In this document: piece after piece, positions 12,928-22,621 of the stretch | Layout of the letters: each line of letters begins with the position of its first letter | How positions within the stretch are numbered: the first letter of the stretch is position 1 | Assembly (NCBI GenBank): GCA_050011235.1 | Contig: JBEKJN010000001.1 | Span: 1-45,366, forward strand | Length of the DNA stretch: 45,366 bases | Source: Verrucomicrobiota bacterium | GTDB lineage: Bacteria > Verrucomicrobiota > Verrucomicrobiia > Limisphaerales > UBA11358 | Direction: 5' to 3' | Translations under genes and position numbers: made by a program | Notes under the pieces: model-generated | The model's input: the letters and a program-made list of their open reading frames with translations, nothing else | Databases searched by the model: none | Told to the model about the DNA's origin: nothing

Positions 12928-12987
12928 TAAACCCGTTTTCGGGATTATGCACTTGACAAGTGTAAGACAAAATGGTATATTTGAGGC

Positions 12988-13983
12988 ATGAAAACTGAAT
13001 TACTGCCAACGCCAAAAGACCTGACACTCTCGCAAGTGATGAAGCGGTTTGGTTGTGAGTCGGATGCGCGGGAATATCTTGAAGCTGTTCGCTGGCCGAA
13101 TGGCGTCGTTTGTCCGCATTGCAAAAACAGCGACCCGAATAAAATCTGGAAAATCCACGCCAACACTGCCAAGAAAATACGCCCCGGTTTGTATCGTTGT
13201 GCCGAATGCGACAAGGAATTTACCGTGACTGTCGGGACGATTTTTGAGGACTCGCATATCCCGCTCTCAAAATGGCTGGTTGCGTGGTATCTCACTGTCA
13301 GTTCCAAAAAAGGGATTAGCGCATTGCAGATTCAACGCTCGCTTGGTTTGGGTAGCTACCGGACGGCATGGATGATGATGCACAAAATCCGGCATTCCAT
13401 GAAAGACCCGGCATTCAGCGAGCCATTGGACGGCGTGTTAGAAGCGGATGAAACCTACGTCGGCGGCAAGCCGCGTCCGCAGTTTGACAAAAGTTTTCCG
13501 CCGAAATTGATTCGCCCAATCAAGAAGAAATCGCCGGTGGTTGCGCTTGTGCAGCGGGGCGGGAAAGTTCGCACAAAAGTCGTGTCGAACGTCAGCCAGA
13601 AAAACCTCAAATTGTTTCTTGGCCTGAACGCCGACCCGAATTCAACCATGAACACAGACCAAGCCCCGATTTATCATCCGATCTTGCGCGGTTTCAAGCG
13701 TCACGATGTCGTGAATCATTCTCGGTTTGAATACGCCCGCCATAATCCTGACGGCACGGTGAGCGGGGTGAATTCCGCCGAGAGCTTTTTCAGTTTGCTT
13801 AAGCGCGGTATCGTTGGTGCGTTCCATCATGTTTCGCCGGAACACTTGCACCGCTATTGTGATGAATTTGGTTTTCGCTGGGACTTCCGAAAAGTCACCG
13901 ATGGCGAGCGAATGATTGAAGGGTTGAAGCGCACGGAAGGGAAACGGCTTCTTTACAAGCAGCCAATTAGCCAAAAGTCCTAG
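12988..13983 (+). CDS. IS1595-family transposase (N-terminal zinc ribbon plus ISXO2-like DDE domain)
   Basis: Motifs ARE.LE.VRWPNGVVCPHCKN...YRCAECDKEFTVTVGTIFEDSHIPL.KW, EADETYVGGK, MNTDQAPIYH and VNHS...NSAESFFSLLKRGIVGAFHHVSPEHLHRYCDEFGFRWDFR. Confidence 0.9.
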   Translation: MKTELLPTPKDLTLSQVMKRFGCESDAREYLEAVRWPNGVVCPHCKNSDPNKIWKIHANTAKKIRPGLYRCAECDKEFTVTVGTIFEDSHIPLSKWLVAWYLTVSSKKGISALQIQRSLGLGSYRTAWMMMHKIRHSMKDPAFSEPLDGVLEADETYVGGKPRPQFDKSFPPKLIRPIKKKSPVVALVQRGGKVRTKVVSNVSQKNLKLFLGLNADPNSTMNTDQAPIYHPILRGFKRHDVVNHSRFEYARHNPDGTVSGVNSAESFFSLLKRGIVGAFHHVSPEHLHRYCDEFGFRWDFRKVTDGERMIEGLKRTEGKRLLYKQPISQKS

Positions 13984-14095
13984 TTTTCAAATTGTATCAC
14001 AAAGCTACAACTTAATATCAACTTGGACAACAAACATTGGTTTTGAACAATTATTCCTTTGAAAAAGGCCCCGGCGTGCGCCATGCTACTCAAAG

Positions 14096-14198
14096 TGGTG
14101 CGGATGGCGGGATTTGAACCCGCAAGGCCGTTTATCCTTTACTAGAGGCGGCCACTGGCTTCCAAGGCCAGAGCGTTTACCAGTTTCGCCACATCCGC
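14096..14198 (-). tRNA. class-II tRNA with a leucine-type body, anticodon UGG (proline codons), a 31-nt variable arm and an encoded CCA
   Basis: Hand fold of the reverse complement: GCGGAUG-UG-GCG-AAACUGGUAAA-CGC-U-CUGGC-CUUGGAA-GCCAG-[31 nt: UGGCCGCCUCUAGUAAAGGAUAAACGGCCUU]-GCGGG-UUCAAAU-CCCGC-CAUCCGC-A-CCA. The anticodon is at 14162-14164. The D arm closely resembles that of E. coli tRNA-Leu. Confidence 0.75.
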
Positions 14199-14206
14199 AT
14201 CGGCAG

Positions 14207-14278
14207 TGGTGGAGCTAGAGGGAATCAAACCCTCTGCGGCGCAGGTGGAAATCCGTCCGCACCTTCACAGGTAGCCCC
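14207..14278 (-). ncRNA. tRNA-Ala-like / tmRNA-TLD-like RNA: Ala-type acceptor stem (G3:U70) and a T arm, without canonical D or anticodon arms; encoded CCA
   Basis: Reverse complement: GGGGCUA-CCUGUGAA-GGUGCGG-ACGGAUUUCCAC-CUGCGCC-GCA-GAGGG-UUUGAUU-CCCUC-UAGCUCC-A-CCA. The G.U pair is between 14276 and 14213. The T loop has U instead of C56. It ends 8 nt upstream of the next tRNA gene. Confidence 0.5.
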
Positions 14279-14289
14279 GCAGTCGTATA

Positions 14290-14319
14290 ACAGCCCCGGA
14301 TGTAACAGTCCGGGGCTGT
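14290..14319 (-). terminator. strong hairpin after the cargo ORF (terminator or processing signal)
   Basis: An 11-bp stem (acagccccgga / tccggggctgt) with an 8-nt loop. On the minus strand it is followed by UUAUAC, only a weak U tract, then the tRNA-like gene. Confidence 0.4.
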
Positions 14320-14369
14320 CCAATTCTACACAGTAATATGCTTCTTTTGCTTTCAAAAGTAAACCAGAT

Positions 14370-14783
14370 TTAGGCAGCCCATGTCCACAGACCACTCTTC
14401 TCTTGGACGCGGTCTTCGTCCTTAAGGTGGTTAAGAATTCTACGGGTTGTGCCATATTTAGTGCCCGACTCAGCGGTGATTTCTTTAATGGTGGCACCGC
14501 TGCCATTTCTGTTTTTTAGGAAATCGGAAACCAGTTTCTCAGATTGCCCCTTCTTAATCCGGCCATGCGGGGTTTTCTCTATCCGCACTATTGGTTGGGG
14601 GTTTGGGGGGCCAATGATACTGCTCCTTGTATATTCAGGGCCTAAACCAAAACTCTGTTTTAATGCCTTGATCTGCTTGGAAAGAGCAGAGACTCTGTCA
14701 ATAAGCGCACGGCGCTGTCGCTCCAGAATAGTCAAAAACTCTGGGGCTGATTCTTCTGTGACTTCAACGTTCATTGTTTTCAT
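14370..14783 (-). CDS. IS cargo protein: N-terminal coiled coil plus C-terminal winged-helix-like DNA-binding domain (hypothetical)
   Basis: 137-aa ORF. ILERQRRALIDRVSALSKQIKALKQ has heptad character. The C-terminus SEKLVSDFLKNRNGSGATIKEITAESGTKYGTTRRILNHLKDEDRVQEKSGLWTW looks like a wHTH. No family name assigned. Confidence 0.6.
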   Translation of the reverse strand: MKTMNVEVTEESAPEFLTILERQRRALIDRVSALSKQIKALKQSFGLGPEYTRSSIIGPPNPQPIVRIEKTPHGRIKKGQSEKLVSDFLKNRNGSGATIKEITAESGTKYGTTRRILNHLKDEDRVQEKSGLWTWAA

Positions 14784-14980
14784 AATGTTTTTTTGGCTTA
14801 AACATCTCTGCCCAAGTTAAGAGACTTGGAAGTCCATATCAAGAAAAATTTTCGAAAAAGTTACAAAAACGATATTCCCAAATAAAATCAACGGAAATTC
14901 ACCGTCAACGTTGAGCAACGATGATTTATTCGCCACGGTGAATAAAATTTACCGCGACTTTACTGGCAAACCCAGATAAA

Positions 14981-15112
14981 ATGGCTGGCGTGAAACAAAA
15001 GCCTGAATACACAAAGCCTTGCGTTTCAATGGATTTTGACGAAGTAATGCGCCGGGTGGTGCGCGTCAAACCAGAGAAACCCAAGAAGCCAGCCAAGCGG
15101 AAACACAAGTAA
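14981..15112 (+). CDS. possible 43-aa lysine-rich small ORF inside the IS, divergent from the 137-aa ORF
   Basis: My own translation: MAGVKQKPEYTKPCVSMDFDEVMRRVVRVKPEKPKKPAKRKHK*. It is below the ORF-track size cutoff. There is no other support. Confidence 0.25.
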   Translation: MAGVKQKPEYTKPCVSMDFDEVMRRVVRVKPEKPKKPAKRKHK

Positions 15113-15377
15113 AACCGCTAGTTTGTGCCATCGTTTCCAATTTTGTCACGCTTCCACTTGTCAAGTGCATAATCCCGCCCGTTTTTGTGCCAAGCAATTG
15201 TACCAAACGGCACTCCAACTGAGCCATTCCGTCGCTTTTGGCACAACTTTTATCGCTTCTTAAAACGGGAAAAAGTTAAAATTGTCCTATGTTTACAATG
15301 GTTTTATCATCATTTCCGCTGCGCGGCATCGCCATTGCTTGGAATACAGCCGAAGCAGTGTAACTACATAGAAATTT

Positions 15378-21400: not shown

Positions 21401-22087
21401 ATGATTCGCCGCGATTACATTTTGCGCCAGATCGAACAGTTTGTCGCAATGCTGGCGAAGATTGCCGGGCTCGCGAAGAATGAGCAATGGCTGGAGGCTT
21501 CGACTGTGACCGCCGGGGAATTTCAACGGCTGACGGGAGCGGACGCCGGGGAAGTGCTCCAAATGTCCGAGACGGAGTTGCTGGCCCGGTTGATTCAGGG
21601 TGAACCAGCCCACGTTGTCGAAGCCAAGGCCTTCATGCTGGCGACCCTGCTTAAAACGAATGGAGACCTCGTCGCCAGCGAGGGCCGACTGGAAGAGAGC
21701 CGCCAGTTTTACCTGAAAGGATTGCACCTGTTACTCGACACTTTCGGGCGCAGTGGAATCACCGAACGCCCGGACTTCGTGCCTGCCGTCGAAGCGTTCC
21801 TGACCGGCTTGCGCGACGTACCGCTGCCGGTAAAGACCAACGCGACGCTCATGCACCATTACGACCGAACCGGAGAATTCGCCAGGGCCGAGGACGCGTT
21901 GTTCGGCATGATGGACGCCGAACCGGACAAGGTTGAACTTTTGGACTTTGGCCGGTCGTTTTACCAGCGATTGCAGGGATTGGGTGACGACGCGCTGGCG
22001 GCGGGAAATCTGCCACGGGCCGAAGTGCAGGCCGGGCTTGCCGAATTGGACGCGCGCCAGGCCCGGCTCCGCCGGACAGCGGGGTGA
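21401..22087 (+). CDS. hypothetical protein (helical, TPR-like appearance)
   Basis: 228-aa ORF with host-like GC. No confident family. Confidence 0.55.
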   Translation: MIRRDYILRQIEQFVAMLAKIAGLAKNEQWLEASTVTAGEFQRLTGADAGEVLQMSETELLARLIQGEPAHVVEAKAFMLATLLKTNGDLVASEGRLEESRQFYLKGLHLLLDTFGRSGITERPDFVPAVEAFLTGLRDVPLPVKTNATLMHHYDRTGEFARAEDALFGMMDAEPDKVELLDFGRSFYQRLQGLGDDALAAGNLPRAEVQAGLAELDARQARLRRTAG

Positions 22088-22224
22088 TGCTCCCGTTGGT
22101 TCTTAATAATTGGCCTCACTGGTAGTGATACAGTTTAGTGGGGCAACGCTACTGACGAGCCGGCTCGCGTGTACGCTCGCCCCACCGAAAACGGCAAAAC
22201 ATACCCACAGTCTCACCACGTTGC

Positions 22225-22253
22225 TTGACCTTGTGCAAATTAAGCGTGAGAAT
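22225..22253 (+). promoter_or_regulatory. candidate sigma70-type promoter of ssrA
   Basis: TTGACC (22225-22230), a 17-nt spacer, then GAGAAT (22248-22253), 15 nt before the mature tmRNA 5' end. Confidence 0.4.
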
Positions 22254-22268
22254 GTGAAAGTTCGCTTT

Positions 22269-22621
22269 GGGGGCGTACCGGTTTCGATCCGGGAAATGCG
22301 CCAGAGGCGGCATGCCGAGGACGATGCGTTGGCCTCGTTAATCATCGCATCAAACAAAACAGCTAACGAACAATTAGCTCTCGCGGCCTAATAGTCCGCG
22401 ACGTTCGCCGGTGGACACCTGCTACGCCGGACGAACGCCATAGCAGGCATGGCGGAACGCGGAGACCGCGCGTGGTTCGCCGAGAAAATTACATGCGGAC
22501 TAGGCAGTGCGATTCGAGTCCGGACGCCATCGCACAGCAGAAAAAATTCTCCGGACTAAGCATGTAGTCGCGGCTGGTTTATTTGCCGGGGACGCGGGTT
22601 CAACTCCCGCCGCCTCCACCA
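22269..22621 (+). ncRNA. ssrA: tmRNA (SsrA), one-piece, 353 nt
   Basis: The 5' GGGGGCG pairs with the 3' CGCCUCC-ACCA (G3:U70). The T arm is GCGGG-UUCAACU-CCCGC. The tag ORF ends ...GCU AAC GAA CAA UUA GCU CUC GCG GCC UAA UAG (ANEQLALAA**). The possible resume codon is GCA at 22347. Confidence 0.93.

Follow-up and report, generated by a model that had tools for sequence, protein, structure and literature searches.

A miniature tRNA-like RNA with alanine identity elements, conserved across bacterial phyla, is carried by an IS1595-family insertion sequence of a Verrucomicrobiota bacterium

The 45,366-nucleotide stretch of DNA analyzed here (positions 1 to 45,366 of contig JBEKJN010000001.1 from a Verrucomicrobiota bacterium, assembly GCA_050011235.1; hereafter referred to as the window) contains on its minus strand, from position 14278 down to 14207, the gene for a 72-nt RNA (GGGGCUACCUGUGAAGGUGCGGACGGAUUUCCACCUGCGCCGCAGAGGGUUUGAUUCCCUCUAGCUCCACCA) that resides in an insertion sequence (IS) of the IS1595 family. 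Comparison with about one hundred related sequences provides good support for viewing this RNA as a conserved, L-shaped, tRNA-like molecule that possesses the identity elements of an alanine tRNA and is transported as cargo of mobile elements. With a probability of about 0.5, we further interpret it as a compact tRNA that would be charged by the alanyl-tRNA synthetase (AlaRS) and would act as a missense or nonsense suppressor, with both charging and decoding inferred from sequence features.

The RNA can be written by parts as GGGGCUA, CCUGUGAAGG, UGCGGACGGAUUUCCACCUGCGCCGCA, GAGGG, UUUGAUU, CCCUC, UAGCUCC, A and CCA. A preliminary description of this DNA had reported a sequence that ends in CCA, with A73 next to an acceptor stem GGGGCUA/UAGCUCC that contains a G3:U70 pair, and with U at position 56 of its T arm (GAGGG-UUUGAUU-CCCUC); each of these features, the CCA being encoded, can be read on the minus strand. 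The acceptor stem, which is identical to that of the tRNA-Ala of Escherichia coli, contributes to a complete Ala identity set consisting of G3:U70, A73 and G1:C72/G2:C71. Alanylation, which had also been proposed, is consequently plausible as far as the identity set is concerned, and charging itself is inferred from it. The description of the core fared less well. It had been depicted as a single helix capped by a 12-nt loop and joined to the acceptor stem by an 8-nt linker, without a D arm and without a 7-nt anticodon loop; in about 100 relatives, however, a D hairpin and an anticodon-type arm covary in exactly this part of the molecule.

These relatives were collected with a search pattern that prescribed the T loop and the greater part of the acceptor stem, excluded the spacing of canonical tRNA-Ala, and left position 70, the outer T-stem pairs and the entire core free. 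The scan returned at least 120 loci from a metagenome collection and 56 loci from a set containing one genome per species; once compact canonical tRNA-Ala had been removed, the matches listed left 53 and 52 distinct sequences of non-canonical type, respectively, and our family counts rely on these. The RNA of the window did not itself appear among the matches from the genome set. Members are 66-71 nt long before the CCA (73 nt in a single model match), although the pattern permitted lengths down to 59 nt, and the CCA, which lay outside the search pattern, is encoded in 41 of the 105 members. Their hosts span more than eight phyla among the genomes, in addition to metagenomes, and include Acidobacteriota, Verrucomicrobiota, Acidimicrobiia and other Actinomycetota, Alpha- and Gammaproteobacteria, Chloroflexota, Gemmatimonadota, Ignavibacteriales, Peribacteria of the Candidate Phyla Radiation (CPR), as well as a contig that was assigned to a Methanobacterium bin. 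Among the carriers in culture are Mycolicibacterium elephantis (DSM 44368), Mycobacterium kyogaense, Caulobacter ginsengisoli (DSM 18695), Mesorhizobium sp. YM1C-6-2, Yoonia maritima and Cribrihabitans marinus. Viral contigs yielded four matches only, and a blastn search of a plasmid collection gave no family match.

We built a covariance model, termed R1, from 14 members of identical layout; the window sequence was not among them. On positions 14210-14278 of the minus strand, R1 scores 60.8 bits (E ~2e-11), and because the window RNA had no part in the training of the model, its membership in the family goes beyond a chance resemblance. Nearly all members attain 45-82 bits, a few members from CPR/Peribacteria attain 38-42 bits, and compact canonical tRNA-Ala molecules range from 33 to 43 bits. 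Standard tools pass over the window RNA. ARAGORN misses the 72-mer and calls the true ssrA/tmRNA (transfer-messenger RNA) only. An Rfam scan at gathering thresholds finds no RF00005 match for positions 14207-14278; it reports the true tmRNA with 160.5 bits and, as the only other match, a class-II tRNA with 63 bits. When Rfam is run in E-value mode, tmRNA (RF00023) ranks first on the 72-mer with 21.9 bits (gathering threshold, 47), and RF00005 scores below these 21.9 bits and below its own threshold of 29. The scans proposed in the preliminary description thus leave the RNA below threshold for both families, and Rfam 15 has no family for the mini RNA.

When folded under constraint, the family members follow a common plan. 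The acceptor stem is immediately adjoined by a hairpin of 2-5 bp with a loop of 4-5 nt; this hairpin is followed by a long helix, often interrupted by one internal loop and mostly capped by 7 nt, and then, after 0-1 nt, by the T arm. Nucleotides 8-9 and the variable loop of a tRNA are missing, and the anticodon-type arm comprises 9-10 layers. In the window RNA, the outer helix of this arm abuts the T stem with no variable loop between them. As the length of the core varies, an alignment by MAFFT and RNAalifold recovered the acceptor and T stems only, and an alignment of 101 sequences to the covariance model (A4) was used instead. In A4, which is fitted to the model structure, 95.1% of the cells assigned to pairs are indeed paired, in comparison with 72.6% in shuffled alignments (none of the 500 reached the observed value) and with 40-56% when the pairing partners were slid against each other; the covariation score is 0.506, in comparison with 0.122 in the shuffles. 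Double changes occur in all three pairs of the D stem, in all five pairs of the outer and both pairs of the inner anticodon-type helix, and in three of the five T-stem pairs; D-stem cells are paired in 93% and the acceptor helix in 100% of cases. The pairing of the acceptor and T arms, for which the preliminary description had suggested a covariation alignment, is conserved across the homologues. Individual comparisons illustrate this: the homologues at loci L021 and L022 retain G3:U70 while their T stem has changed in a compensatory manner from GAGGG/CCCUC to GUCGG/CCGAC, and the L022 homologue additionally carries C:G in place of U6:A67. Position 70 is U in 99 of the 101 sequences of A4. This position had been left free in the search pattern, and second mini RNAs detected by a structure-only scan at loci L062 and L123 (acceptors GGGGGUA and GGGGGUG) again possess G3:U70 together with A73.

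A covariation signal that is independent of the fitting of A4 to the model structure comes from the contact between the D and T loops. A D-loop GG occurs together with C56 in 90 of 93 sequences, and a D-loop GA occurs together with U56 in eight of eight, the latter distributed over five different D arms and including the window RNA (Fisher test, p = 8e-10; the lineages are not fully independent). Judged from this co-occurrence, the GA/U56 combination is the classical G19:C56 elbow pair changed to A:U, and we propose that the G-A of the D loop of the window RNA represents the equivalents of G18 and A19, so that A14 and U52 in the numbering of the RNA would form the counterpart of the 19:56 pair. 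The odd U56 of the window RNA finds its explanation in this switch of the elbow pair. Collectively, the co-variation between the D and T loops indicates that the family RNAs would form a tRNA-type elbow.

Aligned to R1, the window RNA consists of the acceptor stem (nucleotides 1-7/62-68), the D arm C8C9U10-GUGA-A15G16G17, an outer helix formed by U18G19C20G21G22 with C40C41G42C43A44, an internal loop in which A23C24 faces U36G37C38G39, an inner stem G25G26 with C34C35 that closes the 7-nt loop A27-A33 (AUUUCCA, window positions 14246-14252), and the T arm at nucleotides 45-61. The 5' strand, loop and 3' strand of its anticodon-type arm measure 9, 7 and 11 nt; the family mode is 9, 7 and 10 nt. 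An alternative inner pairing, CGG/CUG, would leave an 8-nt loop (AUUUCCAC). The single helix with a 12-nt loop of the preliminary description corresponds to the minimum free energy (MFE) structure of the isolated sequence (-30.9 to -31.1 kcal/mol; z = -2.7, with four of 200 shuffles reaching this stability), and to this extent it stands; the covariation of the relatives, however, supports the other fold. The family fold with the 8-nt-loop inner stem is computed at -28.7 kcal/mol, 2.2 above the MFE of -30.9. The covarying D hairpin could not persist in the single-helix fold, which is therefore disfavored. Among the matches listed, L141 is the closest relative; it has the same D arm as the window RNA and can form the family fold only.

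A 7-nt loop caps the anticodon-type arm in 70 of the 101 aligned sequences, and these loops bear the signature of an anticodon loop: U33 is present in 68, A38 in 61 and C32 in 52 of the 70. The window loop AUUUCCA accordingly displays U33 and a UUC anticodon, with C at position 37. The presumed anticodon triplets are hypervariable. UCC (ten loops) and UUA (nine) are the most frequent, GUA, CUA, UAG, UUG, ACC and UGA occur four times each, and UUC is found in the window alone. Triplets complementary to stop codons (UUA, CUA and UCA) make up 14 of the 70 loops (~20%), a proportion that contrasts with the three out of 64 triplets given by a simple count. The 5' strand of the arm is 9 nt long in 47 and the 3' strand 10 nt long in 42 of the 70 sequences, and since these lengths prevail in roughly two thirds of the members with a 7-nt loop, the distance from the anticodon end to the elbow is held constant. 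An arm of this length roughly matches the stack that the anticodon and D stems form in a normal tRNA. As a separate observation, the C37-containing loop motifs UUCCCA, UACCCA and UUUCCA(U) recur both in mini RNAs and in a canonical-shaped partner tRNA (L104:6118-6190); the partner at L175:6730-6805 is called by ARAGORN as a tRNA with the 4-base anticodon UCCC, and some family members can be folded with 8-nt loops. Quadruplet decoding would be conceivable.

The 72-nt RNA is cargo of an IS1595-family element (Table 1), and the mobile-element association suspected in the preliminary description is thereby borne out. Its passenger status follows from the inverted repeats of 27 nt and, outside them, the 8-bp duplication of the target (CCCGTTTT), which together enclose the transposase gene, both RNA genes and the gene for a small protein, ORF137 (named after its open reading frame, ORF). 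Three or four passenger genes are present in total: the 72-nt RNA, a Leu-like tRNA, ORF137, and possibly a 43-codon ORF. Elements of the IS1595 family create 8-bp target duplications and occasionally carry passengers, as is known from ISfinder. Twenty metagenomic contigs, several of them from the Joint Genome Institute (JGI), contain the exact transposase or ORF137 and are 99.75-100% identical to the window; those that reach the flanking genes represent the same locus as the window, except for one (L013). Positions 1-1265 of L013 are 99.75% identical to window positions 13356-14968, after which a der/engA GTPase gene replaces the right end of the IS; the break at 14968 means either that the cassette also occurs in another genomic context or that the assembly is chimeric. 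An empty insertion site was not found, as all contigs with the flanking phosphoribosyltransferase gene also contain the IS.

Table 1. Features of the IS1595-family element, its RNA and protein cargo, and the resident ssrA gene in the window.
Feature	Position	Strand	Remarks
IS1595-family element	12940-15177		2238 bp, complete; between phosphoribosyltransferase gene and dnaK
Left terminal inverted repeat	12940..12966		target duplication CCCGTTTT at 12932-12939
IS1595-family transposase	12988..13983	+	PF12762 (DDE_Tnp_IS1595) 1e-30; PF12760 (Zn ribbon, N-terminal) 9e-13
Leu-like class-II tRNA, anticodon loop CUUGGAA (UGG)	14096..14198	-	RF00005 63 bits on 14198..14099
Miniature Ala-type tRNA-like RNA	14207..14278	-	encoded CCA 14207-14209; A73 14210
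T arm GAGGG-UUUGAUU-CCCUC	14218..14234	-	U56; sequence and T-stem covariation
Anticodon-type arm	14235..14261	-	outer helix UGCGG/CCGCA, RNA nucleotides 18-22 with 40-44
Mini D arm CCU-GUGA-AGG	14262..14271	-	3 bp and tetraloop; abuts acceptor stem
Acceptor 5' strand GGGGCUA	14272..14278	-	pairs with UAGCUCC 14211-14217; contains G3:U70
GC-rich hairpin ACAGCCCCGG-N-CCGGGGCUGU	14287..14322	-	between ORF137 and RNA genes; no U tract
ORF137, small protein	14370..14783	-	upstream of RNAs, same strand
Right terminal inverted repeat	15151..15177		27 nt, 96% complementary to left; CCCGTTTT at 15178-15185
Resident ssrA	22269-22621		RF00023 160.5 bits; stems differ from 72-nt RNA

The Leu-like tRNA that had been noted next to the 72-nt RNA is a genuine class-II tRNA by its RF00005 score, starts 8 nt downstream of the mini RNA, and was missed by ARAGORN in the window. 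It possesses an unusually long variable arm of 29 nt, A73 and an encoded CCA, and its UGG anticodon reads proline codons. Leu-type class-II partners with A73 and a tRNA-Leu-like D arm are also present in related IS1595 elements; their anticodons are UGG (window, L021, L028), UUA (L022-L027, L029) and UCC (L029). Long-variable-arm Leu-type tRNAs with a UGG anticodon occur at L038 and L177 as well, where the transposases are 41-45% identical to that of the window. Leucyl-tRNA synthetase (LeuRS) is, like AlaRS, blind to the anticodon, and we therefore predict from their sequences that Leu-type tRNAs carrying UUA (ochre), UCC or UGG would serve as mistranslators or suppressors. ORF137, encoded upstream of the two RNAs, combines a coiled coil that we propose for its N-terminus from a reading of the sequence with a conserved winged-helix-like motif at its C-terminus (RNGxGATIKEIT...YGTxRR...GLW). 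The protein has no Pfam match, and one homologue shows a weak HTH_58 match. It is rare: among 5.8 billion proteins, five homologue clusters were found, one of which is near-identical to ORF137, and the other four (P0002-P0005) are 43-58% identical to it. Irregular tRNA genes are situated just downstream of the ORF137 homologues in all contigs fetched for these four clusters, and an IS1595 transposase gene is present on those contigs that are long enough (L021, L022-L026). The hairpin between ORF137 and the RNA genes is conserved as CAGCCCCGGACUGUUA..UCCGGGGCUG in the window (14287-14322), at L021:1175-1205 and at L022:2153-2183, loci whose ORF137 proteins are 55-58% identical. This hairpin might serve as an operator or as a site of processing, or might terminate transcription in an atypical manner. 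The resident ssrA gene, whose stems differ from those of the 72-nt RNA, encodes the tag ANEQLALAA and follows a gene for a DUF6483 protein (window 21401-22621); in agreement with the preliminary description, the mini RNA is not its duplicate.

We clustered the neighboring ORFs of the 105 family members; many of the loci that remained without a recurrent neighbor are short contigs. The most frequent neighbor is an IS1-family transposase (PF03400; 29 loci), located 30-630 nt downstream on the same strand; at L065, IS1-type inverted repeats bracket the RNA and the transposase. IS1595 transposases adjoin 15 loci, either upstream on the same strand or convergently, and tyrosine integrases are adjacent to three. 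Putative regulators recur as well, namely XRE-type helix-turn-helix (HTH) proteins 300-530 nt upstream in divergent orientation (ten loci) and three clusters of small winged helix-turn-helix (wHTH) proteins, including ORF137, directly upstream on the same strand (11 loci). Small wHTH or HARE-HTH proteins analogous to ORF137 were seen to precede other family members. A tRNA-like partner was found within 400 nt of 13 of the 105 members only (structure scan for a 7-bp acceptor and a T arm), and the partner RNAs are positioned 5-14 nt downstream. We also noticed an arrangement of a different kind in metagenome-assembled genomes (MAGs) of Acidimicrobiia (Candidatus Poriferisodalis and others), in which a member shares its strand with selA, which precedes it by ~129 nt, and with selB, which follows after ~107 nt (L161, L162, L164, L165, L171, L176, L181, L182, L186; e.g., L164:1548-1616). 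These members have the loop YUGAWAYC and no UCA anticodon, and Rfam detected no tRNA-Sec in the seven selA-selB loci scanned. The IS1-type transposase beside one family member is spread over three frames both in a metagenome contig (L087:2790-3727) and in a Terriglobales MAG (L206:6176-7113), which reflects either decay or programmed frameshifting. The idea that the IS requires the tRNA to read through a stop codon or frameshift in its own transposase gene was rejected: no in-frame stop is present in 39 of 44 loci, as assessed in the best tblastn alignments of the adjacent IS1/IS1595 transposase genes, some of which are partial owing to short contigs, and the exceptions look decayed.

These data lend themselves to a model in which the 72-nt RNA operates as a suppressor tRNA. 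RNase P would cut its 5' end out of a transcript shared with the Leu-like tRNA, and the 3' end would be trimmed back to the encoded CCA. AlaRS needs determinants in the acceptor stem only; it charges minihelices and reads neither the anticodon nor the core of its substrates, and this would explain how an Ala identity can survive such a drastic remodeling of the tRNA body. The enzyme would thus add alanine by virtue of G3:U70, A73 and G1:C72/G2:C71. EF-Tu, which recognizes the 7/5 acceptor/T branch present here (PMC5389517), would deliver the charged mini RNA to the ribosome, where the long anticodon-type arm would replace the stacked D and anticodon stems. The UUC anticodon of the AUUUCCA loop would then place alanine at GAA/GAG codons, and stop codons would be read by those relatives whose triplet is UCA, or UUA or CUA as, for example, at L021, L111 and L128. 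Small wHTH proteins such as ORF137 may regulate both RNAs, and the IS would be a mobile carrier of tRNAs that change the meaning of codons, one a mini Ala tRNA and the other a Leu-type tRNA with a proline anticodon. Decoding is suggested by the U33/A38 loop signature, the constant length of the arm, the enrichment of nonsense triplets and the anticodon-swapped Leu-type partners, and a precedent points in the same direction: irregular, anticodon-swapped tRNAs are known from soil and peat bacteria in the vicinity of transposable and toxin-antitoxin elements, and other irregular tRNAs with G3:U70 from similar habitats inserted alanine in E. coli (PMC5389517). For the family as a whole, we tentatively put forward the somewhat bolder view, in our estimate less likely than not, that translation-competent mini tRNAs of ~68 nt occur in many phyla, would be charged by AlaRS whatever their anticodon, and would be spread by IS1, IS1595 and integrase islands as codon-reassignment cassettes, often in company with Leu-type tRNAs bearing foreign anticodons.

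Several observations weigh against this interpretation. Position 37 is a purine in almost all tRNAs that decode, yet C occupies it in 31 of the 70 seven-membered loops (44%; A in 24, G in 13), and in 30% of the relatives the loop comprises 6, 8, 9 or more nt. With nucleotides 8, 9 and 26 and the variable loop missing, compatibility of the modeled RNA with the ribosome is presumptive. In the window RNA itself, the inner anticodon stem consists of two G:C pairs only, set beside a 2 x 4 internal loop; the exact 7-nt-loop family fold is, at -23.4 kcal/mol, much weaker in silico than the folds with an 8-nt (-28.7) or 12-nt (-30.9) loop. A simple sigma-70 scan of the minus strand upstream of the RNA predicted no promoter. 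The Ala-type uniformity of the family is partly built in by the pattern, which prescribed the T loop and the greater part of the Ala acceptor stem, and the fit of A4 to the model structure favors its pair counts. Finally, some irregular tRNAs were reported to be charged and yet not used in translation (PMC5389517).

The latter precedent, which includes tRNAs lethal to E. coli and linked to toxin-antitoxin and transposable elements (PMC5389517), leads to the possible, if in our estimate rather unlikely, alternative that the family consists of tRNA-shaped RNAs that do not decode and instead act as regulators, decoys or toxin/antidote components for the mobile element, perhaps in alanylated form. 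Such an RNA might titrate AlaRS, EF-Tu or a tRNA-targeting nuclease, or, governed by the HTH protein encoded beside it, might pair with a target through its loop. Anticodon stems that are irregular, loops that depart from 7 nt and the high share of C37 would fit this role; so would the recurrence of small wHTH or XRE regulators as neighbors, and the fact that the inner stem-loop of ~17 nt differs between members with otherwise like scaffolds (L021/L022; L185/L192/L194). U33, A38, C32, a constant arm length and an excess of stop anticodons are, on the other hand, what selection for decoding should produce. Moreover, PADLOC found no defense-system match for ORF137 or the other small neighbors, one XRE-type neighbor giving a weak HTH match only, and inspection by eye of the window loop as a potential guide revealed no complementarity to the IS ends or to the target duplication CCCGTTTT. 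An element of mere processing or punctuation, as likewise entertained in the preliminary description, would recruit RNase P and 3' enzymes so that the ORF137 mRNA is cut apart from the Leu-like tRNA or the latter is matured, and would have no function of its own. The location of the RNA between ORF137 and the class-II tRNA, 8 nt from the latter and behind a hairpin without a U tract, and the lack of a separate predicted promoter accord with such a role, but it is weakened by the rarity of partners within 400 nt, by a placement relative to the transposase genes that is not fixed, and by the presence of G3:U70, a 7-nt loop with U33, an arm of constant length and the 19:56 covariation, none of which a punctuation signal needs. 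We consequently regard it as improbable.

Far less credible is the proposal, central to the preliminary description, that the RNA mimics a stand-alone tRNA-like domain of tmRNA; such a mimic would bind SmpB or enter stalled ribosomes. The proposal draws on the Ala acceptor stem and T arm and on RF00023 being the best Rfam match in E-value mode, with 21.9 bits for the window RNA and 27 bits for its homologue at L021. These scores are far under the gathering threshold of 47. The alignment on the 72-mer covers the acceptor stem and T arm only, skips 328 model positions, and takes as 5' strand the GGGGCUG of the upstream hairpin, not the RNA's own. The family has a paired D hairpin and an anticodon-type stem-loop, of which tmRNA has neither, their places being taken there by helix P2 and a D-loop analogue that is unpaired; a tag reading frame and pseudoknots are missing from the 72-nt RNA. 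Least credence of all is given to the view that the RNA is what remains of a host tRNA-Ala gene after decay, or a piece of an attachment site whose 5' complement arose by chance. The identity of its acceptor stem with that of E. coli tRNA-Ala, the common use of tRNA genes as integration sites and the integrases adjoining some relatives might suggest this. A degenerate tRNA-Ala is nevertheless contradicted by about 100 distinct sequences from many phyla whose four helices are kept by compensatory change along with the 19:56 pair and whose lengths stay within 66-71 nt, and the window copy resides inside an IS with an intact transposase gene and a target duplication.

Among the systems with which the suppressor-type mini RNAs can be compared, the allo-tRNAs and irregular-tRNA polycistrons (Mukai et al., Nucleic Acids Res 2017) are likewise non-canonical and bacterial. 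They come from metagenomes of soil and peat, with an acidobacterial origin assumed for many of them; their anticodons, nonsense anticodons included, are unrelated to a Ser or Ala (G3:U70) identity that is read by anticodon-blind synthetases; and they share a D-arm tetraloop, tandem arrangement with other odd tRNAs, links to transposable and toxin-antitoxin elements and, in some cases, insertion of Ala or Ser in E. coli (PMC5389517). In allo-tRNAs, the acceptor/T branch is 8/4 or 9/3, and both the variable arm and the D stem are long (PMC5389517), whereas the window RNA has a 7/5 branch (its C8 and C61 cannot pair), neither a variable arm nor a variable loop, and a D stem of 3 bp. With canonical tRNA-Ala it has in common GGGGCUA/UAGCUCC with G3:U70, A73, CCA, a 5-bp T stem, a 7-nt T loop and the elbow pair; it deviates by the missing nucleotides 8-9 and 26 and variable loop, a D arm of 3 bp and 4 nt, an anticodon arm of ~9-10 layers, UUC in place of NGC, C37 and U56. 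The tRNA-like domain of tmRNA shares the G3:U70 Ala acceptor, the T arm, CCA and the placement of an acceptor/T branch on a non-cloverleaf core; helix P2 through the pseudoknots, the tag ORF and the unpaired D-loop analogue have no counterpart in the window RNA. D-armless or armless mitochondrial tRNAs and the compact tRNAPyl resemble the mini RNAs in their shortened core without connectors, their short or absent variable region and their elongated anticodon stem (in part from PMC7609411). These size-reduced tRNAs belong to organelles or to the pyrrolysine (Pyl) system and have given up either the contact between D loop and T loop or the conserved T loop itself; the mini RNAs, in contrast, are bacterial, borne by mobile genetic elements, and combine an Ala identity with a standard T loop and a covarying 19:56 pair. 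The carrier itself has the hallmarks of known IS1595 elements with passengers, i.e., a DDE_Tnp_IS1595 transposase with a Zn ribbon, inverted repeats, an 8-bp duplication and genes between the transposase and one end, and differs from them in that the passengers are tRNA-like RNA genes and a gene for a wHTH protein. Our literature searches found no published account of RNA passengers in IS1595 or IS1 elements, and in the literature searched, which returned the work on allo- and irregular tRNAs only, the architecture of the mini RNAs is not described; the supplementary irregular sequences of PMC5389517 were not compared, so that a partial prior sighting is possible. The mini RNAs are thus a new structural variant among the known non-canonical, mobile-element-associated tRNAs of the suppressor type and apparently form an undescribed family.

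Several consequences of the finding can be outlined. As ARAGORN and RF00005 miss these genes, genome annotations and inferences of the genetic code from metagenomes may overlook mini RNAs. Should the RNAs not decode, an alanylatable tRNA mimic carried by elements with two families of transposases would point to an unknown link between transposons and translation. Should they be charged and decode, the bacterial ribosome would accept a tRNA without connectors, without a variable loop and without a normal D arm, and a minimal decoding tRNA of this kind would bear on the evolution of tRNAs and on the design of orthogonal ones. The existence of cultured carriers makes this question directly testable. 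The anticodon-swapped tRNAs borne by IS elements would then fall into those classes whose synthetases are blind to the anticodon (Ala, Leu), and mistranslation and stop-codon suppression would be horizontally transferable traits that are moved between bacteria by transposons.

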